A stretch of DNA of 13,791 nucleotides from Cytophagales bacterium (lineage in GTDB: Bacteria; Bacteroidota; Bacteroidia; Cytophagales; Cytophagaceae), in NCBI GenBank assembly GCA_025360235.1, contig JANYCO010000056.1, forward strand, positions 1 to 13,791, in the 5' to 3' direction. How positions within the stretch are numbered: the first letter of the stretch is position 1; the number at the start of each line of letters is the position of its first letter. Of the stretch, positions 1 to 8,467 are shown piece after piece. Under the pieces are notes generated by a model, which searched no databases, was not told the origin of the DNA, and saw only the letters and a program-made list of their open reading frames with translations. A program made the translations under genes and the position numbers.

Positions 1-2
1 CC

Positions 3-734
3 TGGAAAAAAAATGAAACAGAATTACATCGAACTATTGGCATTTCATTTCAGGAAACAAAATTTATGGATAAGCTTTCTGTTAAAGAAACACTCCAGAT
101 GTTTGCTTGTTTTTATAAATTAAATGAAACAAGAGTAGAGGAAGTATTGGAATTGGTAAATCTTCAATCCAAACAAAAAAGTTATACGGTAAATTTATCC
201 GGAGGCCAGCGTCAGCGTTTAGCGCTCGGGGTGGCATTGCTTCATAAGCCCAAAGTACTTTTGCTCGATGAACCTACTACTGGTCTGGATCCCACAGCCA
301 GACGGGAAGTATGGAATATTTTAGAAAAATTAAAACGGGAAGAAAACACTTCTATGATTCTTACTACTCATTATATGGAAGAAGCAGAATTTCTTTGCGA
401 CCGCATTGTGATCATGGATCAGGGGCGGTTTATAGCTCAGGGGACGCTGGAAGAATTAGTATCCAAATACAGTGAAGGGGAAGTTATTGAATTTAATCTT
501 GGACAAACATTACCCGAAGATCCGCAAACCTTTATTAAAGGAGTAAAGGGAATCATCTGGGATATTCCTTTGAAAAGAGGGAAGATGAACGTTGAAAGTA
601 TTTCAAGAACACTCCCATTATTTATTCAATACCTAACTGATCATCAAATTTCAATAACGGAATTAGAATGCAGGAAAATGAGGCTTGATGATTTGTTTAT
701 TTCTATGACAGGAAGGAGTTTGAATGAAAACTAA
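3..734 (+). CDS. ABC transporter ATP-binding protein (ABC-2/CcmA-type exporter ATPase), 5'-partial
   Basis: The reading frame is open from the window edge, so the ATG at 66 is internal. ABC signature LSGGQRQR, Walker B LLLDEPTTGLD and H-loop TTHYMEE are present. A ~90-aa C-terminal extension ends in ...RLDDLFISMTG, as is typical of ABC-2 exporter ATPases. The Walker A motif would lie upstream of the window. Confidence 0.9.
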   Translation, partial: WKKNETELHRTIGISFQETKFMDKLSVKETLQMFACFYKLNETRVEEVLELVNLQSKQKSYTVNLSGGQRQRLALGVALLHKPKVLLLDEPTTGLDPTARREVWNILEKLKREENTSMILTTHYMEEAEFLCDRIVIMDQGRFIAQGTLEELVSKYSEGEVIEFNLGQTLPEDPQTFIKGVKGIIWDIPLKRGKMNVESISRTLPLFIQYLTDHQISITELECRKMRLDDLFISMTGRSLNEN

Positions 735-1788
735 TCCTCTTGTTTCTCTTGTCGTAATAAATTTCAAAAATTTCTTTCGGGAACCAGGGGCACTGTTTTG
801 GTCATTCGCCTTTCCGATAGCAATGGCGTGGATTCTAGGGGTTGCCTTTTCAGGAACTCCTGCAAAGAAATATAAAGTATTACTATCAGGAGACAGTACC
901 CTTTCACAAATATATCCCAACGAGAAGAAAAAAGATTTTATAAAAGAAATTGCGACCGGAACCGGAATGTCAGTAACTGCCGTCTTTGAAACTGTTTCGT
1001 TAGAAAAAATAAAGGAAGCCCTCCAAAAGGGAGCTTGTATTTTATACATTGATCTGCGCAATGGGCAACCTGTATTTCATTATGATGCCAGTAATTCAGA
1101 TGCAGCAAACCTTTATGTGTTGCTGGAAAGAGATATCGCACTAGTAGCGGGTAAAAAAAGTTTTCCAATAGCACAGATCACCACAAAAGGAACGAGGTAT
1201 ATTGATTTTCTTATACCAGGCTTATTGGCCATGGGTATTATGAATTCCTGTGTATGGGGAATAAGCTGGTTTTTGATCGAACTCAGAATAAAAAAATTAT
1301 TAAGGAGAATGGTTGCTACACCAATGAAAAAATCAGATTTTATACTTTCCCATTTTATAGGAAGATTATTATTAACCTTATTTGAGGCTTCGGTATTATT
1401 CTTTTTTTCCTGGCTTTTCTTCGATTTGGAAATAACCGGAAGTTCAGTGGCTTTAATTCCTTTGTTTTTTTCAGGGATTCTGGCTTTTGGGGGAATAGGT
1501 TTGATCTTAGCCTCCCGCACCCAAAGTACTTATGTTGGGAATGGGCTTATTAATGCCGTAGTTCTACCTATGACCATCGTTTCGGGGATTTTCTTTAGTT
1601 ATGAAGGGTTCCCAAATTGGTTGATTCCTATTATTAAGATATTGCCACTCACCATTCTAACTGATTCTATTAGAGCGGTCTTTAATGAAGGAGCCGGTTT
1701 TTCGGAGATCTTTTGGCCTTGTTCAATACTGACTTTACTGGGATTAATCTTTTATTACACGGGCTTGAAATTGTTCAAATGGTATTGA
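724..1788 (+). CDS. ABC-2 family transporter permease
   Basis: Its ATG at 724 overlaps the upstream stop (ATGAATGA), indicating translational coupling with the ATPase. It has an N-terminal TM helix, a ~130-aa extracytoplasmic loop, and then five to six hydrophobic helices, which matches YadH/NosY-like ABC-2 permeases. Confidence 0.85.
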   Translation: MKTNPLVSLVVINFKNFFREPGALFWSFAFPIAMAWILGVAFSGTPAKKYKVLLSGDSTLSQIYPNEKKKDFIKEIATGTGMSVTAVFETVSLEKIKEALQKGACILYIDLRNGQPVFHYDASNSDAANLYVLLERDIALVAGKKSFPIAQITTKGTRYIDFLIPGLLAMGIMNSCVWGISWFLIELRIKKLLRRMVATPMKKSDFILSHFIGRLLLTLFEASVLFFFSWLFFDLEITGSSVALIPLFFSGILAFGGIGLILASRTQSTYVGNGLINAVVLPMTIVSGIFFSYEGFPNWLIPIIKILPLTILTDSIRAVFNEGAGFSEIFWPCSILTLLGLIFYYTGLKLFKWY

Positions 1789-1832
1789 GGTGGCTATTAA
1801 GAAAAGAATTATTCGCCTTTTTTTATTACAAA

Positions 1833-1870
1833 TCCTTGAAATTTTTATTTTTTCTGCTAATATTTGGTAA
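1833..1870 (+). promoter_or_regulatory. Candidate Bacteroidetes-type promoter (-33 TTG, -7 TAatATTTG-like) for the solute-binding-protein gene
   Basis: A TTG at 1836-1838 and TAATATTTG at 1858-1866 are spaced ~19 bp apart, resembling the Bacteroidetes sigma-A consensus TTTG / TAnnTTTG. The match is inexact. Confidence 0.2.
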
Positions 1871-1940
1871 CTTAAATCCCACAAATGGGAATGACCATTT
1901 GGGTTTGACTAACAATTCAATTTTTTATTAAAAATTTAAA

Positions 1941-3692
1941 ATGAAAAAGACATTAATTTCTTTTCTTTCGGTTGCTTTACTTGTAAGCGCTTGTGGCCCT
2001 TCAAACGATAGCAACGTAGATCCAAATGCATTAGTAGAAGCCAAAGGTGGCAAATATTATGGCGGTACTTTCATAGTGAATGAATCCGATTATATTAAAA
2101 ACCTATTCCCTCATAATATCATAGATGCGATCTCTTACCGAGTGGCCTCTCAGATCTATGAAGGGCTTATGAAATTTGATCAAAAAGACTTAAGTCTTAA
2201 AAACGGTATTGCAGAAAGCTATACCGTGGATTCTTCGCAAACAGTGTACACCTTTAAATTAAGAAAAGGGGTTATGTTTCATGACGATGAATGCTTCTCA
2301 GGCGGCAAAGGCAGAGAAGTGACTGCAGAGGATGTAAAATATTGCTTTACGTTACTATGTACTCCTAGCGTAACCAACCAAGGGTTTAGCTGTTTGGACG
2401 GTATTGTAAAAGGAGCCAAGGAATATTATGTTGCTGCTAAGGATGGCAAAAAGCCAGGATTTGAAGTAGAAGGTATCAAGGTAATTGATGCATCAACAAT
2501 TCAATTCACGCTTACTGCTCCAAATTCTATCTTCCTTAATAACTTAGCGCGACCATTTACCTTTATCTTCCCAAAAGAAGCATATGAGAAATACGACAAA
2601 GAAATGAGGATAAAAGCAGTTGGTACTGGCCCATTCTCTATTTCTAAAGTGGAAGAAGGAAATGTTGTTGTACTTAAGAAAAACGAAAACTATTATTTGT
2701 CCGATAAAGACGGAAATAAACTTCCTTATTTGAATGGAATAAAAGTTAAATTTTTAAAAGACAAAAAATCTGAACTGTTAGAATTTAAAAACGGTCGTTT
2801 GAATATGATGTACCGTATGCCTACAGATTATATTATAGAAATAGAAGAACAAACTGCACAGAAAACAGGTGTATATGGAGAATACGAACTTCAGAGAACT
2901 CCTGAAATGGCAACGCACCTTTTATGTTTCCTGAACAATGGAAAAATGTTCAGCAACAAAAATCTAAGAAAGGCAATCTCTTATGCAATCAACAGAAAGA
3001 AAATTCTTGAAGCAGTATTGAATGGAGAAGGCTACTGGCATGCTATCTATGGCATCACTCCGGTAGATGCTTTCAAAGGATACGATGTTAAAAAAATAAA
3101 AGGATACGACCTGAACTTGGATTCAGCTAATATGTATTTGAAAAAAGCTGGGTTCAAAAAAGGAGCTGATGTTCCTAAAATCACGCTTGAATTAAACTCT
3201 GATGGTGACAGAAACATTGCAGTAGCAGAAGAAGTAAAAAAACAACTTAAAGAAAATCTTGACATTAATGTCGACATCAATGTGGTTACAACTCCGGCAT
3301 TGGCAGAGATCATGCAGAGTGGGAAAAGTGATTTCTTTCGTTTAGGTTGGTTTGCCGATTATCCAAGTCCTGAAAACTTCCTTTGGTTCTTCTACGGTAA
3401 AAATGTACCTGCTACAATGGATGAAATTTCTTATCCAAACTTTACAAGATACGTGAATCCTAAGTTTGATGAATTGTACGAAGCAGGCTTAAGAGCAAAA
3501 ACGCAGGAAGAGGCGTATGGCTATTTCTTAAAAGCAGAACAAATTGCAATGGATGATGCACCTGTTATTGCCCTTTGGTATGATGAAGGATACAGATTGC
3601 TTCAATCTACAGTAAGGGGATTGGACAACAACGCTATGCAGTTTAGGGATTTTACCGGAGTGTATTTTATACCTGGAACAAAAAAGAAATAG
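1941..3692 (+). CDS. Extracellular solute-binding protein family 5 (OppA/DppA-like) lipoprotein
   Basis: It has a lipoprotein signal peptide with the lipobox LVSAC (Cys18). The mature protein is ~565 aa and opens with GGTFIVNESDYIKNLFPH...YEGLMKFD, which is typical of cluster-C/family-5 peptide or nickel binding proteins. No cognate OppBCDF-type permease genes are nearby. Confidence 0.85.
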   Translation: MKKTLISFLSVALLVSACGPSNDSNVDPNALVEAKGGKYYGGTFIVNESDYIKNLFPHNIIDAISYRVASQIYEGLMKFDQKDLSLKNGIAESYTVDSSQTVYTFKLRKGVMFHDDECFSGGKGREVTAEDVKYCFTLLCTPSVTNQGFSCLDGIVKGAKEYYVAAKDGKKPGFEVEGIKVIDASTIQFTLTAPNSIFLNNLARPFTFIFPKEAYEKYDKEMRIKAVGTGPFSISKVEEGNVVVLKKNENYYLSDKDGNKLPYLNGIKVKFLKDKKSELLEFKNGRLNMMYRMPTDYIIEIEEQTAQKTGVYGEYELQRTPEMATHLLCFLNNGKMFSNKNLRKAISYAINRKKILEAVLNGEGYWHAIYGITPVDAFKGYDVKKIKGYDLNLDSANMYLKKAGFKKGADVPKITLELNSDGDRNIAVAEEVKKQLKENLDINVDINVVTTPALAEIMQSGKSDFFRLGWFADYPSPENFLWFFYGKNVPATMDEISYPNFTRYVNPKFDELYEAGLRAKTQEEAYGYFLKAEQIAMDDAPVIALWYDEGYRLLQSTVRGLDNNAMQFRDFTGVYFIPGTKKK

Positions 3693-3750
3693 ACCACTGA
3701 TTGAACGGATTAAGTGATTTCGCGGATTCCTTTATAAGATAAAAAAATAA

Positions 3751-3782
3751 AAAAAGAGCAACCTTTGGTTGCTCTTTTTTTA
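3751..3782. terminator. Bidirectional rho-independent terminator between convergent genes
   Basis: The stem GAGCAACC (3756-3763) pairs with GGTTGCTC (3767-3774) around a TTT loop. It is followed by T7 (3775-3781) and preceded by an A-run (3741-3755), so it reads as a terminator on both strands. Confidence 0.75.
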
Positions 3783-3813
3783 TAAAATCGGAGAAATCCC
3801 TAATTTCATTTAA

Positions 3814-4386
3814 TCAACGATAAAAGAGTTTTTTATGAATATACGCCTCAACTTGTTCTGTCACCAGATAACGAATAGATTTCCCTTCTTTTATATTGCT
3901 TCTGATATAGGTAGCAGAAATATCTAACAGAGGGGCAGGAACAAATTTTACTTTCGGATGCTCGGAAAGGTTTGTTTTTTCTGCGGCTGGTCTTGGGTAT
4001 ACATACAATTCATAATACTCAAGAATTTTATCGTAATTTTTCCATTTAATAAAAGAAGCCAGATTATCTTCACCAATGATAAGCACAAACTGATGTTGAG
4101 GATATTTTTCAGATAGATAGGTAAGCGTATCGATGGTGTAGCTTGGCTTGGACAAATGAAACTCTACATCAGTGACTTTTAATTTATAGCTGTCGTTTAC
4201 TGCTAACGAAACCATTTCATAACGGTCAAACTCATGAAGGAGGCTTGCATTTTTTTTTAAAGGATTTTGAGGAGATACTACTAACCAAACCTCTTGAAGA
4301 TCGGAGTTCTCAGCCATTGTATTGGCAATAATTAAATGACCAATATGGATAGGATTAAAAGAGCCGAAAAATAAACCAATCTTCAT
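3814..4386 (-). CDS. nadD: Nicotinate-nucleotide adenylyltransferase
   Basis: The N-terminus MKIGLFFGSFNPIHIGHL carries the (H/T)xGH nucleotidyltransferase motif, and the C-terminal ISATYIRSNI is an ISSTxxR-like motif. The ORF-track start at 4392 is a TTG, so the ATG at 4386 is taken as the true start. Confidence 0.9.
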   Translation of the reverse strand: MKIGLFFGSFNPIHIGHLIIANTMAENSDLQEVWLVVSPQNPLKKNASLLHEFDRYEMVSLAVNDSYKLKVTDVEFHLSKPSYTIDTLTYLSEKYPQHQFVLIIGEDNLASFIKWKNYDKILEYYELYVYPRPAAEKTNLSEHPKVKFVPAPLLDISATYIRSNIKEGKSIRYLVTEQVEAYIHKKLFYR

Positions 4387-4391
4387 TTTCA

Positions 4392-4450
4392 ATTTTGAGT
4401 TATGAATTTTGAGTTATGAATTAATAGTTCAACATTCATAACTCAAAATT
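4392..4450. repeat. Perfect 16-bp inverted repeat (ATTTTGAGTTATGAAT-N12-ATTCATAACTCAAAAT) plus a third direct half-site copy, placed between the SDR stop and the nadD start
   Basis: TTTTGAGTTATGAA occurs at 4393-4406 and 4407-4420. Its reverse complement occurs at 4436-4449. Confidence 0.6.
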
Positions 4451-4452
4451 AT

Positions 4453-5181
4453 TTATACGCAATATCCTCCATCTATATTCAGCACTGTGCCTGTAATATA
4501 GTTGGCTTCGTCAGAAGCAAGGAAGAAGTAGGCATTAGCAATATCTTCAGCTGTACCGATTTTTCTTGCTGGGATTTTTTCCTTGATCGACTTAATAACC
4601 ATTGCTGTATTTTTATTGATGTACTCGCTGTCTATATAGCCAGGAGCAATTGTATTTACAGTTATATTATGTTTGCTAAGTTCCAATGCCCAAAGTTTTG
4701 AAATGCCTATTACACCATTTTTTACTGCTGAATAGTTTGCCTGATTTACATCTCCGTATAAACCTAGAAGCGCCGTAGTATTAATAATTCTTCCATAATT
4801 ATTAAGAAGCATATAAGGGGAAACTGCTTTGATACAATTCATAACGCCACTAAGACTTTTGTCGATCAATTTTGACCAATCACTCTCCCCAGCATCTATA
4901 CTGGAGGCTGCATTATTGATTAGGATATCTATGCGTTGGTATTTTTCGTAAATTTCTTTTGCTCTTTTTTCTGTCTCTTCAAGATTTGTATTGTCTACTT
5001 TCTGAAAATCTACGGTGCATTTTTGAGCCTTTAGATTGGCTACTACGATTTTTCCTTTTTGTTCGTCGGTGTCCCAGAGAATAACTTTAGCGCCTGACTT
5101 ACAAAATTTATTAATGGAGGCGGTGGCTATGCTATCTGCCCCTCCACTTATAATGACAATTTTGTTTTCTGATTTTCTCAT
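4453..5181 (-). CDS. Short-chain dehydrogenase/reductase (SDR) family oxidoreductase, FabG-like
   Basis: It is ~240 aa with a glycine-rich N-terminal dinucleotide-binding segment (ISGGADSIATA), an NNAA motif, and the catalytic YSAVK (Yx3K). Its ATG overlaps the menA stop (ATGA). Confidence 0.85.
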   Translation of the reverse strand: MRKSENKIVIISGGADSIATASINKFCKSGAKVILWDTDEQKGKIVVANLKAQKCTVDFQKVDNTNLEETEKRAKEIYEKYQRIDILINNAASSIDAGESDWSKLIDKSLSGVMNCIKAVSPYMLLNNYGRIINTTALLGLYGDVNQANYSAVKNGVIGISKLWALELSKHNITVNTIAPGYIDSEYINKNTAMVIKSIKEKIPARKIGTAEDIANAYFFLASDEANYITGTVLNIDGGYCV

Positions 5182-6092
5182 GATACAGCCAGAAGTATTC
5201 CTGTTCCAAAACTAAAAACAAAGACAAGTGTGCTTATTGCCATTTGTTTTAGATAAGGGTCTAGATCTCGGGAATCGAGTGTTTTAACTTTTACAATATT
5301 AATAATAAAAAGCGGAACTGAAACTAAAAACAACAGCTGCCATGGATTTTTATAGGTAATAATGATATAGATCACCGCACAAAGAAAGCCTGCAGAAAGC
5401 AGTACAATATGGTACAAGACGGCTTTTTCTCTCCCAAGCCTTGAAGGAATGGTTCGTTTTCCTGCTTCAGTATCTGATACAATATCCCGGATATTATTTA
5501 TGTTCAGAACACCTGTTGCGAAAAGTCCACATGAGGTGGCTGGTAAGATAGTTGCAGCATATAATTCACCTGTTTGAAGAAAAAAACTTCCGCAAACTCC
5601 TACCCATCCAAAAAAGATAAGAACAGAAATATCTCCCAGACCAGAATAACCATAAGGGTTCTTTCCTGCAGTATATTTTATAGAAGCTATAATTGCAAAT
5701 ACGCCAAGTACAAGAAAAAAGCCGAAGGTATTGATCGATTGAAAAGTGTCGCTGATGTATAGTAATGTTATTCCGGTAGCAAAGGATAAGAATGAAAACA
5801 ATACAATAGCATTTTTCATTGCAGCAGGACTTATCTCTCCTGATTGCACTGCTCTTTCCGGGCCAATACGGCCGATCAGATCAGCGCCGTTTACATAATC
5901 GCCATAGTCGTTGGCAAGGTTGGATAATATCTGAAGGAGTATTGTTGTGAGAATGCACAATAAGAAGATCTCTAATTTAAAACTTCCATAAGCCGCCGCC
6001 AGAAATCCTCCCATACCAATACTTGCTACAGCGAGGGGTAGTGTTCGAAGACGGAATGCTTTTAACCAGGCGTTAGTGGATCCTTTGGCCAT
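5178..6092 (-). CDS. menA: 1,4-dihydroxy-2-naphthoate octaprenyltransferase (UbiA superfamily)
   Basis: LLQILSNLANDYGDYVNGADLIGRIGPERAVQSGEIS closely matches the E. coli MenA active-site region (LLQILSNLANDYGDAVKGSD..RIGP). The N-terminus has RLRTLPLA, and the protein has multiple TM helices. Confidence 0.9.
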   Translation of the reverse strand: MAKGSTNAWLKAFRLRTLPLAVASIGMGGFLAAAYGSFKLEIFLLCILTTILLQILSNLANDYGDYVNGADLIGRIGPERAVQSGEISPAAMKNAIVLFSFLSFATGITLLYISDTFQSINTFGFFLVLGVFAIIASIKYTAGKNPYGYSGLGDISVLIFFGWVGVCGSFFLQTGELYAATILPATSCGLFATGVLNINNIRDIVSDTEAGKRTIPSRLGREKAVLYHIVLLSAGFLCAVIYIIITYKNPWQLLFLVSVPLFIINIVKVKTLDSRDLDPYLKQMAISTLVFVFSFGTGILLAVS

Positions 6093-6093
6093 A

Positions 6094-7314
6094 TTATGAA
6101 ACTTGTTTTACTTTAAATGAGACCAGAATACAAGCCACCAGAGCCACAATAGAGATGATGCCACAAATACCGAAATTTTCCAGAGAACCATTATTATTTT
6201 TCACTATAATAGCTCCAGCGGCAAGAATGGCAAGAGAGGATGAAAATTGTTGTATGGATGAATTGATACTCATAAAACTTCCTCTCTGACGAAGTTCAAC
6301 ACTGGAAGTCATCATCGACATGGCAGGAACGAAACGTGCTCCAAAGAAAATAAAAAAGATACTACTCATTGTGAGTATCCAGGTATAGCTTGAAGCAGGT
6401 AGATGTGTCATAATGTATACGGGTATAACAGAAATAATTCCTGCAATTAAAAACACTCTTGGTTTCCCGAATTTATCCGCTAATCGTCCTGTTAAAGGTC
6501 CTGATATTGCAGTAGCTATACCTCCAAAGAAATAAACGAGATAAAGATCTCCTTTGCTTAATCCAGCATTTTTTACAAGATAATCAGAAAGGAAAGGTAC
6601 TACCGTAAGGCCTGAGATCATTAGTAAGGACATAAATAAAAACGACCAACGAACATTTGGATTCAGGAATAGGCCTTTAATTTTTTGTAGAGTGCCACTG
6701 AAATCAAGATTGGTTACATGTGAAGTAATGGAAGGCATTTTGAACCATGTAAATAATAATACGATAAGACTTAGTAGTGTAATAAAATAAAAGGGAGCAT
6801 GCCAATCAAATACATCGGCAAGTAGAATACCTATCGGGAGTCCGATAACGGAGGCAGCAGAAAAGGCAGCCATTACAATGCCTGTTGCTTTGCCTCTTCT
6901 TTCCTGAGGAATAACATCACCAACTACGGATAGAATTACAGAGCCTAATACACCTCCAAAAGCACCAGCAAGAATTCTGGAAGTCATTAAGGAATAATAC
7001 TCAGGTGAAATGGCACAGGCAAAATTGCTGATGGTAAATCCGGAATACAGGAAAATAAGAGTAGTGCGTCTGTCGAATTTGTCCACGAAGAATGCCCCTG
7101 CAATTCCTGCTACCCCTGCGCTTAATGCATAGGAAGCCTGAAGTAAGCTGAATCGTTGCGGACTAAGGGATAGAGCTTCAGTTAAGAATGGATTGAGTGG
7201 TGCCATAATCACGAAATCCATAATATGGGTAAAGTTGATTGCTGCCAGAATGAATAGTAGTAAGCCTTCTTTTATTGGAACAGCTGGTGTTGAGTTTGTA
7301 TTTTGAATTGACAT
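6094..7314 (-). CDS. MFS transporter
   Basis: It is 406 aa with ~12 predicted hydrophobic helices and a GRLADKFGKPR-type loop motif between TM helices (MFS motif A-like). Its stop lies 1 bp from the menA start. Confidence 0.85.
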   Translation of the reverse strand: MSIQNTNSTPAVPIKEGLLLFILAAINFTHIMDFVIMAPLNPFLTEALSLSPQRFSLLQASYALSAGVAGIAGAFFVDKFDRRTTLIFLYSGFTISNFACAISPEYYSLMTSRILAGAFGGVLGSVILSVVGDVIPQERRGKATGIVMAAFSAASVIGLPIGILLADVFDWHAPFYFITLLSLIVLLFTWFKMPSITSHVTNLDFSGTLQKIKGLFLNPNVRWSFLFMSLLMISGLTVVPFLSDYLVKNAGLSKGDLYLVYFFGGIATAISGPLTGRLADKFGKPRVFLIAGIISVIPVYIMTHLPASSYTWILTMSSIFFIFFGARFVPAMSMMTSSVELRQRGSFMSINSSIQQFSSSLAILAAGAIIVKNNNGSLENFGICGIISIVALVACILVSFKVKQVS

Positions 7315-7335
7315 AAAATTAGTTAAAAATTCTGT

Positions 7336-7971
7336 TTAACATTTCCTTCGTATTCTTTTTCTCCCTTTGCCGTTACAATTATAACAGATAATTTTTTCCT
7401 TTAACGTTCCTTTGCATACCGTGCATTTCACTATTTTTTCTCCATTACAACGATGGCAGGTGTGAAAAGTATTTCCAAAACTATTGCTGGCCGTAGCTAC
7501 ACCACTTCCTTTACAAAGAGGACAAATTTCGACGCCTTTTCCTTTACAGTGCCTGCAAGCGATTTCAACGGTTGAATCCCCATAACAAATATCACATTCC
7601 ATATAAACATCATGATAGCCAGTCTCCTTGCAGTCTGCCTGAATAAGCGCTTCGTGTGCTTTGTGAGAAAGAGGACCTTCTTCCCCTTGCAGCATTATAT
7701 ATTTATTAAGGGCTGCACGACTCTGAGCATATTTGTTTAGATTAAGTAAAGTATAGCCATAAAAATAAGCGAGTTCATCAGGAACAGCGGTTTTAAGAGC
7801 AAAGATTTTTTTGAAAATATCGTTCGCCTCAGAAAATTTTTTCTCTTCTACTTTCTGTTTTGCCAGTTCAAGATAATGGTTAGCTAAAGTATCTTTAGGT
7901 GTTTGTCCAAAAGATAAGTTAAAGCCTGTTATAAGGAAACTGCAATAAAAGACCAGAATAAAACGCTTCAT
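7336..7971 (-). CDS. Secreted TPR-like / DnaJ-type (CxxCxGxG) zinc-finger protein
   Basis: It has the signal peptide MKRFILVFYCSFLITGFNLSFGQ and a helical TPR-like N-terminal half. The C-terminal half has six CxxCxG repeats (CRHCKGKG, CPLCKGSG, CYNCNGKG and others) like the DnaJ cysteine-rich domain. Its stop is 21 bp from the MFS start. Confidence 0.7.
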   Translation of the reverse strand: MKRFILVFYCSFLITGFNLSFGQTPKDTLANHYLELAKQKVEEKKFSEANDIFKKIFALKTAVPDELAYFYGYTLLNLNKYAQSRAALNKYIMLQGEEGPLSHKAHEALIQADCKETGYHDVYMECDICYGDSTVEIACRHCKGKGVEICPLCKGSGVATASNSFGNTFHTCHRCNGEKIVKCTVCKGTLKEKIICYNCNGKGRKRIRRKC

Positions 7972-8007
7972 GCAAAAGATACTTTACCTAAATATAGTAA
8001 AAATTCA

Positions 8008-8358
8008 CTATATAAGATATGTCCCTAAATCGATTATTTTACCCTCTGTAAAGCTAAAATCGCCTTCCTGTTCAGTATCAATATCATCTAACAAAGGACT
8101 TATAAAGAATTCTTTACCCTCTCTGTAAACTTTAAAATATAGATCAGGGAAAGTTTCAAAGGGAGAGTCGGCAGATTTTATTTTATCAAGGTCAAATTTA
8201 ATCATGACATTTCCTTCCTTGTCTGGTTTTGCTTCGCCAAGAAAGTCGTCTTCTATTGGATCTTTGTCGTATAGCCTTACAGAAATAGTATCTCCGGAAA
8301 GTGCAGCGCCTGTTCCTTTTTCAGTGAGTTGAATTTTAGTATGAATGAAAATGCCCAT
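8008..8358 (-). CDS. Hypothetical acidic cytoplasmic protein (116 aa)
   Basis: It is a clean ATG ORF with no signal peptide. It is rich in D/E with alternating hydrophobic residues, suggestive of a beta-sandwich fold. No family is recognised. Confidence 0.55.
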   Translation of the reverse strand: MGIFIHTKIQLTEKGTGAALSGDTISVRLYDKDPIEDDFLGEAKPDKEGNVMIKFDLDKIKSADSPFETFPDLYFKVYREGKEFFISPLLDDIDTEQEGDFSFTEGKIIDLGTYLI

Positions 8359-8393
8359 AAGTGGATTATTTTGTTTTTTTGTAAAGATAGAAT

Positions 8394-8436
8394 AAAAGGA
8401 GGAAAGAAGAAAAGGAGAAAGGGAGAAAAGAAGAAG
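8394..8436. repeat. 43-nt pure polypurine (plus strand) / polypyrimidine (minus strand) tract
   Basis: The tract AAAAGGAGGAAAGAAGAAAAGGAGAAAGGGAGAAAAGAAGAAG contains only A and G. It lies in the 109-bp gap between the rsuA-like stop and the 116-aa gene start. Confidence 0.9.
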
Positions 8437-8467
8437 TCATGCACCTCTTATGGTTTTCTGAAAAATG

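Follow-up and report, generated by a model that had tools for sequence, protein, structure and literature searches.

Here, we report the analysis of a minus-strand gene (positions 7336 to 7971) in a 13,791-nucleotide stretch of DNA from a Cytophagales bacterium (GenBank assembly GCA_025360235.1, contig JANYCO010000056.1, positions 1 to 13,791; "the window" below means this whole stretch). The architecture of its 211-aa product, hereafter the target, is very probably that of an exported tetratricopeptide repeat (TPR) protein with a three-rung zinc-ribbon hairpin of the type found in the cysteine-rich (CR) domain of DnaJ. The best explanation overall, to which we give a probability of about 45%, is that this exported TPR and zinc-ribbon protein acts as a periplasmic protein-binding factor. 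DnaJ-like zinc-finger proteins without a J domain are already known, so the family is not a new category. The novelty lies in the combination: a bacterial, predicted exported protein, fused to a TPR domain, with a three- or four-rung hairpin clasped onto the TPR cap.

A homolog search with the target returned 22 homologs at 47 to 90% identity, each between 203 and 221 aa in length. None of the 14 cysteines in the mature protein varies among them, the conservation on which an earlier note on this DNA had staked its reading, and M1, Q23, and many TPR-signature residues are likewise invariant. By this alignment, positions 7336 to 7971 hold a genuine, conserved gene under selection. The product starts with MKRFILVFYCSFLITGFNLSFGQTPKD, continues through a helical Lys/Glu-rich segment, and then carries six CxxCxG motifs within residues 126 to 203 (three of the six are full CxxCxGxG), bracketed by a lone Cys114 and the C-terminal Cys211. 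A 211-aa protein with six such repeats is what the earlier note had read here, and both the open reading frame (ORF) and composition-preserving shuffling bear it out: whether the whole protein or residues 114 to 211 alone were shuffled, 0 of 100,000 shuffles reached six motifs (maximum, 3).

The domain assignment rests on the family more than on the single sequence. Searched alone against Pfam, the target gave sub-threshold matches to DnaJ_CXXCXGXG (PF00684; E value, 6.8e-6), BSD2_CRD (6e-4), and TPR_19 (0.009). An exhaustive profile search recovered 679 cluster representatives (clusters defined at 50% identity) at an E value of ≤1e-3, 144 of them at ≤1e-10; the representatives are mostly 200 to 250 aa long and are matched over their full length. 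From these, 131 members entered the ligand-conservation counts given below, and 66 diverse full-length ones formed a profile. PF00684 was matched by 59 of the 66 (best E value, 1.1e-9), BSD2_CRD by 34, and the anti-TRAP family PF15777 by 6, weakly. Compared with solved structures, the 66-sequence profile matched a consensus TPR protein (5e-12), the Escherichia coli DnaJ CR domain 1exk (7.6e-7), BSD2 (2.7e-6), and, weakly, anti-TRAP 3lcz (9.7e-4), which answers the comparison with the DnaJ CR and anti-TRAP domains that the earlier note had proposed. In the residue alignments, motifs 2 to 5 of the target fall on the four motifs of BSD2, and CPLCKGSG...TCHRCNG falls on CPTCHGSG...TCPHCQG of E. 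coli DnaJ. The target also has both the 34-residue helix-turn-helix repeats and the sequence signature by which TPR proteins are recognized.

The remaining parts of an Hsp40 were sought in the same protein. No J domain (PF00226, HPD motif) was matched by the target in Pfam even at an E value of ≤10, nor was DnaJ_C, and the protein stops at Cys211 right after motif 6; the NCBIfam DnaJ models scored 10 to 18 bits against cutoffs of 338 to 548. With J domain and C-terminal domains absent, a true DnaJ/Hsp40 is ruled out, and since there is no J domain, the target is read as a stand-alone DnaJ-like zinc-finger protein. Identity with anti-TRAP is likewise ruled out (NCBIfam RtpA, 14.4 bits against a cutoff of 65). 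On motifs and profile similarity, the target belongs to the DnaJ-CR/DnaJ-like zinc-finger superfamily, and the predicted fold is consistent with this, although weakly scored.

That fold was modeled with AlphaFold. With the 23 close homologs only, the Cys-rich half had a predicted local distance difference test (pLDDT) score below 50; with the 66-sequence alignment, the mean pLDDT was 94.3 (about 97 in the Cys-rich region) and the predicted template modeling (pTM) score was 0.72. The model has a signal-peptide helix (residues 2 to 22), five further helices (25 to 42, 46 to 58, 66 to 77, 81 to 95, and 102 to 117), and four symmetric strand pairs (119-125/204-210, 134-138/191-195, 147-149/180-182, and 158-163/166-171). 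The best Foldseek matches in the PDB were the DnaJA3 zinc finger 2ctt and BSD2 6ekb, with low TM-scores (0.30 to 0.41 by target) and E values of 1.4e-3 to 7e-3. The cysteines follow the same symmetry, with seven pairs whose residue numbers each total 325 (114+211, 126+199, 129+196, 139+186, 142+183, 150+175, and 153+172). This constant sum, together with the mirror-paired strands, points to one continuous antiparallel hairpin with motifs 1 and 6, 2 and 5, and 3 and 4 facing each other. From secondary structure, sequence symmetry, and homology, we infer this pairing of the rungs, which would give the target three Cys4 rungs where DnaJ and BSD2 have two. The C114-C211 pair probably shuts the open end of the modeled hairpin as a disulfide clasp.

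The signal peptide, TPR-like region, and DnaJ-type zinc-finger cluster described in the earlier note are thus supported by profile, predicted fold, and family conservation, with this correction: the Cys cluster appears to be no plain CR domain but an extended hairpin, predicted to have three Cys4 sites in addition to the C114/C211 clasp. A three- or four-rung hairpin of this kind would be a natural case of the DnaJ CR fold being lengthened by added symmetric motif pairs.

Family-wide variation bears on whether the rungs hold metal. The ligand positions are Cys in 119 to 131 of the 131 members (125 to 131 at all positions except 126), the knuckle Gly residues are conserved too, and the sole recurrent ligand replacement, in 10 of 131, puts His in place of Cys126. 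The counterparts of C114 and C211 come in two states, CxxC...CxH (n = 64) and a single C...C (n = 52, including the target clade), with 7 exceptions (Fisher p = 3e-26 for the association, without phylogenetic correction). Because the two states covary, the TPR-cap end and the C terminus would meet in space. In the sister clade, the clasp position would be a fourth site, Cys3His, formed by CxxC...CxH; in the target clade, we take the pair to be either a disulfide or vestigial, with no other option. Both the Cys-to-His replacement and the terminal CxH keep metal ligation and not disulfides, so predicted zinc sites are favored, three in the target and four in the sister clade.

Export is predicted from the N terminus, MKR-FILVFYCSFLITGFNLSFG↓Q, which has a basic n-region, a hydrophobic core of about 18 residues, small residues (S and G) at -3 and -1, and Gln at +1, with predicted cleavage between G22 and Q23 (SFG↓Q). 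This layout fits the Bacteroidota Q-rule pattern for Sec substrates of signal peptidase I (SPI), that is, n-h-c regions, small residues at -3/-1, and Gln at +1; a +1 Gln turned into pyroglutamate is a hallmark of SPI substrates in Bacteroidetes (PMC5837995, PMC10653852). Gln23 is invariant in 23 of 23 aligned sequences. Of the 111 family members that carry five or more CxxC, a hydrophobic core is present in 97 and an AxA↓Q-type site in 86, and those lacking such a site are mostly apparent N-terminal fragments or have another +1 residue. The signal cleavage on which the earlier note had also made its reading depend has a canonical SPI site in the sequence. With MKR ahead of the core and a near-neutral segment after it, the predicted orientation is N-in/C-out. 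Cys10 of the target is unconserved and falls within the hydrophobic core.

Other export routes were considered. A twin-arginine (Tat) motif occurs in only 2 of the 131 family members and lipobox-like strings in only 3, neither being family-wide, and a Pfam scan of the target gave no match to the C-terminal domain of type IX secretion system cargo (Por_Secre_tail). The target as a Tat substrate is ruled out by the first of these counts, and as a lipoprotein or type IX cargo by the absence of a family lipobox and of a C-terminal domain match. The target is probably a Sec-exported, SPI-cleaved, soluble protein, placed in the periplasm because of that export and cleavage; given Sec export and no Tat motif, zinc would be acquired after translocation.

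Conservation of gene order was assessed by tblastn of the window proteins on all fetched related loci. In the window, the target gene is followed by genes for a major facilitator superfamily (MFS) transporter, menA, and a short-chain dehydrogenase/reductase (SDR) (Table 1). All close relatives whose flanks are long enough (11 close loci) keep the order target-(MFS)-menA-SDR, and so does L019, where the target is 33% identical and the MFS protein 51%, the two genes overlap by 4 nt, and the target gene is first in the string. The synteny with menA and MFS that the earlier note had proposed to check therefore held in these loci; it failed in L013, L018, L020, and L021, from which the target-MFS-menA-SDR cassette is absent, and Sporocytophaga has the target-MFS pair only. 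The MFS gene is next to the target gene in 9 of the 11 close loci, plus L017 and L019. In L007 and L012 (target 74 to 75% identical), MFS is lost and menA directly follows the target gene, which makes menA the more persistent of the two neighbors. In three diverged loci of the sister clade with seven CxxC motifs (L014, 6066-7025; L015, 5939-6916; L022, 4030-5013), a gene for a membrane-anchored Endonuclease_NS-like protein has its 3' end overlapped by the target homolog, and the nucleases share 24 to 29% identity among themselves. The menA linkage is genuine and deeper than trivial synteny, and the context as a whole links the family to membrane-associated partners in two ways, each specific to a clade, rather than to a single pathway shared by all members. 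These clade-specific couplings (MFS-menA-SDR and membrane-anchored Endonuclease_NS), together with the occurrence of the signal peptide plus TPR module in fusions to formylglycine-generating-enzyme-like (FGE-sulfatase) domains, suggest a generic rather than pathway-specific role.

Two observations on these loci stand apart. FDCGHLAP of the L022 nuclease aligned with YRWVPLVP in L014, whose catalytic His may be lost. At L021 (1-3017), where the family member is 26% identical to the target, genes for menD (thiamine pyrophosphate enzyme), menF (chorismate-binding), and a 4HBT thioesterase lie 2 to 4 kb upstream on the opposite strand, so that menaquinone biosynthesis genes are near a family member a second time, in a different arrangement.

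The earlier note had taken DnaJ CR domains to be normally cytoplasmic and part of Hsp40, a premise that was too narrow: J-less BSD2/ZnJ2, LQY1, OR, and anti-TRAP are known, and PSA2 is lumenal (PMC4806229, PMC5818400). The chloroplast protein BSD2/ZnJ2 (PDB 6ekb and 9ci1) is, like the target, a stand-alone CxxCxGxG hairpin without a J domain. It has four motifs and two zinc sites, whereas the target has six motifs, three predicted sites, and the putative Cys clasp; it resides in the stroma, a reducing compartment, whereas the target is predicted to be periplasmic; and it lacks a TPR domain, while its client RbcL is without counterpart for the target. The DnaJ CR domain (PF00684; 1exk, 2ctt, and 1nlt) shares with the target the CxxCxGxG repeat and, as predicted for the target, a hairpin with zinc sites formed from outer and inner motif pairs, and the first cysteines of the central motifs are 22 residues apart in both (C150 to C172 in the target). 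Unlike DnaJ, the target lacks a J domain, a G/F region, and a C-terminal substrate-binding domain, has an extra predicted rung, and is predicted to be exported.

PSA2 and LQY1 of the thylakoid are J-less CR proteins that serve as assembly or repair factors for membrane complexes, and PSA2 resides in the thylakoid lumen, the topological counterpart of the periplasm (PMC4806229). Both are plastid, eukaryotic proteins with four motifs and no TPR, related to the target via the shared CR superfamily only and set beside it here by their descriptions. Anti-TRAP (RtpA) of Bacillus is a small bacterial stand-alone zinc binder derived from the DnaJ CR domain, as the target is predicted to be; unlike the target, it is about 53 aa long, cytoplasmic, with a single zinc site, and is a dedicated TRAP inhibitor. 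LapB/YciM of E. coli has a cytoplasm-facing transmembrane anchor, about nine TPRs, and a single rubredoxin-type site, whereas the target has the opposite predicted topology, two TPRs plus a cap, and a zinc domain of the DnaJ-CR type. Membership of the target in the LapB/YciM type is ruled out by the two TPRs plus cap, the DnaJ-CR zinc domain, and the charge distribution with its SPI site.

As to what such a protein would do, we tentatively suggest a periplasmic, ATP-independent holdase or assembly adaptor, on analogy with plastid relatives. The target would be exported by Sec and cleaved by SPI at G22↓Q23, leaving mature residues 23 to 211 with a predicted N-terminal pyroglutamate. A rigid two-repeat TPR domain would follow, its capping helix passing straight into the zinc-ribbon hairpin of the DnaJ-CR/BSD2 type, and zinc would be loaded after translocation into three Cys4 sites (motifs 1+6, 2+5, and 3+4). 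The TPR groove might then pick the partner, with the rigid zinc-ribbon finger as a client-holding surface, for ATP-independent holding or assembly in the cell envelope as in BSD2/ZnJ2, PSA2, and LQY1. ZnJ2/BSD2 binds zinc via its CxxCxGxG motifs and prevents aggregation of unfolded clients without a J domain, ATP, or DnaK (PMC5818400). The chaperone or adaptor role of the target, and any clients, are speculative and drawn by this analogy.

Several points weigh against reading the target as an exported TPR and zinc-ribbon protein of this kind. Alone, it falls below the PF00684 gathering threshold (26.7 against 32.7 bits). Its export is predicted by sequence rules. AlphaFold models no zinc, so the rung pairing is indirect. 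Cys4-zinc sites are unusual in, and generally presumed incompatible with, the Dsb-oxidizing periplasm, where CxxC pairs might oxidize. A generic chaperone role does not account for a menA linkage that reaches down to 33% identity, and no client, partner, or phenotype was found in the literature for any family member.

A redox-active hairpin is an unlikely alternative. The target would then be a periplasmic thiol-disulfide oxidoreductase or isomerase, or an Hsp33-like zinc-release switch, perhaps exchanging electrons with the menaquinone pool. CxxC motifs in an oxidizing compartment would suit such a role, as would the retention of target-(MFS)-menA-SDR in the 11 close loci and L019 and the menF, menD, and thioesterase genes 2 to 4 kb from the L021 member, and disulfide isomerase or reductase activity has been reported for the E. 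coli DnaJ CR domain, CYO1, LQY1, PSA2, and OR (PMC4806229, PMC5818400, PMC9225386). However, no thioredoxin fold was found in the target by Foldseek and structure comparison, which rules out a thioredoxin-like oxidoreductase (DsbA/DsbC/PDI), and ZnJ2, which is no oxidoreductase, holds clients without its thiols (PMC5818400). The Cys-to-His changes, like the CxH at the end site, indicate ligands of a structural metal, and the menA linkage, missing in most other clades, may be just inherited gene order.

A bolder version of the chaperone proposal is quite doubtful. It would make the family the first known extracytoplasmic bacterial DnaJ-CR family and the periplasmic counterpart of PSA2/LQY1, with three to four Cys4-zinc sites loaded after Sec translocation into an oxidizing compartment, a role in the redox-gated holding or assembly of membrane-associated clients, and, in this clade, a functional tie to the menaquinone prenyltransferase operon.

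It is improbable that the cysteines form a metal-free disulfide ladder that stiffens an extracytoplasmic stalk, with the target a structural TPR adaptor. The predicted export to an oxidizing location, the even Cys count (14) of the mature protein, and the C114/C211 pair of the target clade, which cannot hold metal tetrahedrally, all agree with such a ladder. Against it, the His at position 126 (10 of 131) and the terminal CxH (64 members) preserve a metal ligand and not a disulfide, the Gly-rich zinc-ribbon knuckle signature is conserved, and zinc is bound in all solved homologs (1exk, 2ctt, and 6ekb).

A periplasmic buffer or sequestering protein for Zn, Cd, or Cu, with the Cys4 sites used for storage, is very improbable, in spite of 14 Cys in 94 residues, three to four predicted tetrahedral sites, and a neighboring MFS protein that best resembles a metallophore exporter (MxcK-like; 272 bits, below cutoff). 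The regular CxxCxGxG spacing, the invariant Gly, and the DnaJ CR/BSD2 homology are those of a structural zinc ribbon; periplasmic metal-binding proteins typically use His and Met; the conserved TPR domain has no buffering role; and in the examined loci no metal-responsive regulator or transporter lies consistently near the target gene. We attach next to no weight to the absence of export, with an uncleaved membrane anchor and a LapB/YciM-like cytoplasmic TPR and zinc finger, since MKR before the core and a near-neutral segment after it predict N-in/C-out, the -3/-1 site and +1 Gln are conserved across the family (PMC5837995), and the hydrophobic core is short, at about 18 residues.

To our knowledge, there is no zinc-finger holdase among the periplasmic chaperones of Gram-negative bacteria (SurA, Skp, Spy, DegP, and HdeA/B). 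If both export and metal binding hold for the family, Bacteroidota would be able to assemble and maintain zinc-ribbon modules outside the cytoplasm, and the idea of a J-less DnaJ-like zinc-finger chaperone, so far essentially plastid, would reach the bacterial envelope. Were the target a plain structural adaptor, the gain would be only a better annotation for proteins now called hypothetical or mislabeled "molecular chaperone DnaJ."

Table 1. Positions of the target gene, the parts of its product, and neighboring features in the window
Feature	Position	Strand	Remarks
Target CDS	7336..7971	-	Complete, 211 aa plus stop, ATG start (ORF listing, 22 close homologs)
Predicted Sec/SPI signal peptide, residues 1-22 (MKRFILVFYCSFLITGFNLSFG)	7906..7971	-	Cleavage predicted before invariant Gln23
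TPR domain, residues 25-117	7621..7899	-	Five predicted helices: two TPR motifs plus capping helix; Cys114 in last helix
Cys-rich DnaJ-CR-like zinc-ribbon hairpin, residues 118-211	7339..7620	-	Eight mirror-symmetric beta-strands (predicted)
Cys114 codon	7630..7632	-	Half of predicted clasp with Cys211; in last TPR-domain helix
CxxCxG motif 1, CDICYGDS, C126/C129	7573..7596	-	Predicted outer Zn site with motif 6
CxxCxGxG motif 2, CRHCKGKG, C139/C142	7534..7557	-	Predicted middle Zn site with motif 5; aligns to BSD2 motif 1
CxxCxGxG motif 3, CPLCKGSG, C150/C153	7501..7524	-	Predicted inner Zn site with motif 4; aligns to E. coli DnaJ motif 2 (CPTCHGSG)
CxxCxG motif 4, CHRCNGEK, C172/C175	7435..7458	-	Predicted inner Zn site with motif 3
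CxxCxG motif 5, CTVCKGTL, C183/C186	7402..7425	-	Predicted middle Zn site with motif 2
CxxCxGxG motif 6, CYNCNGKG, C196/C199	7363..7386	-	Predicted outer Zn site with motif 1
Cys211 codon, last residue	7339..7341	-	Other half of predicted clasp; conserved basic tail GRKRIRRK precedes Cys211
116-aa ORF, without signal peptide	8008..8358	-	36 nt upstream of target
MFS transporter, 406 aa	6094..7314	-	21 nt downstream of target; Pfam MFS_1, 1.3e-65
menA (1,4-dihydroxy-2-naphthoate polyprenyltransferase)	5178..6092	-	NCBIfam NF004750, 370.8 bits (cutoff, 346)
FabG-like SDR	4453..5181	-	4-nt overlap with menA
nadD (nicotinate-nucleotide adenylyltransferase)	3814..4392	-	End of string; TIGR00482, 178.7 bits (cutoff, 112.45)
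Intrinsic-terminator-like hairpin, 17-bp stem plus T-run	3747..3783	-	Downstream of nadD; closes minus-strand string

Between 3600 and 9300, the minus strand has no terminator-like site other than the hairpin downstream of nadD, an arrangement suggesting that at least the genes from the target to nadD are transcribed as a single unit. Scans for sigma-70 promoters and for the Bacteroidetes -7 element (TAnnTTTG) stayed at chance level and did not locate the 5' end of the unit. The target gene is not the first of its string, as the earlier note had it: 8008..8358 and 8468..9135 lie upstream on the same strand. The product of 8008..8358 had no match in Pfam, NCBIfam, PADLOC, PHROGs, or the PDB; the ORF is kept upstream of the target gene at 64 to 75% identity in 8 of 12 close-relative loci and is absent in more distant loci. 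No link to defense or phages was seen (nothing in PADLOC, and two weak unannotated matches only in PHROGs).

Positions 8468..9135 (minus strand) encode an RluF/RsuA-type pseudouridine synthase as two ORFs (94 and 125 aa), the frame being shifted by 1 nt near 8846-8853. If one base is put back at 'cct att tcc cta ta ggc aga ttg gat', the translation reads PISL(I)GRLDKESEGLLL, which we take to resemble the conserved GRLD motif of pseudouridine synthases; the split is either a sequencing error or the mark of a pseudogene. Divergent from the minus-strand string, an 821-aa ORF with a TTG start (9271..11736, plus strand) encodes a bacterial homolog of the eukaryotic Major Vault Protein (MVP), with Pfam matches to MVP_shoulder (2.6e-26) and Vault_3 (3.7e-7) and a phmmer match in the PDB (E value, about 2e-15; query residues 446 to 787 on rat MVP 443 to 803). 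It had no NCBIfam or PADLOC match.

Named members of the target family come from Sporocytophaga myxococcoides (WP_028982154.1), Fulvitalea axinellae (WP_338391275.1), and metagenome-assembled genomes of Cytophagaceae or Cytophagales, and are currently labeled "hypothetical protein," "tetratricopeptide repeat protein," or, misleadingly, "molecular chaperone DnaJ." A literature search turned up no relevant work on bacterial DnaJ-like or CxxCxGxG zinc fingers that are exported or periplasmic; an eLife paper on conflict systems covers FGS and TPR domains, without the architecture of the target (PMC7159879). The signal peptide plus TPR module (motif LPPEIxADxYL) also occurs without the Cys-rich domain, fused to FGE-sulfatase domains or RHS repeats (P0130, P0157, P0160, P0171, and P0159). 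P0141 (1,145 aa; cluster member P0190, 2,876 aa) and P0161 (386 aa) have a signal peptide and about 20 CxxCxG motifs. One such many-motif protein, labeled an Ig-like domain-containing protein, is from a Clostridia bacterium, which suggests that exported arrays of DnaJ-type knuckles are not limited to Bacteroidota.

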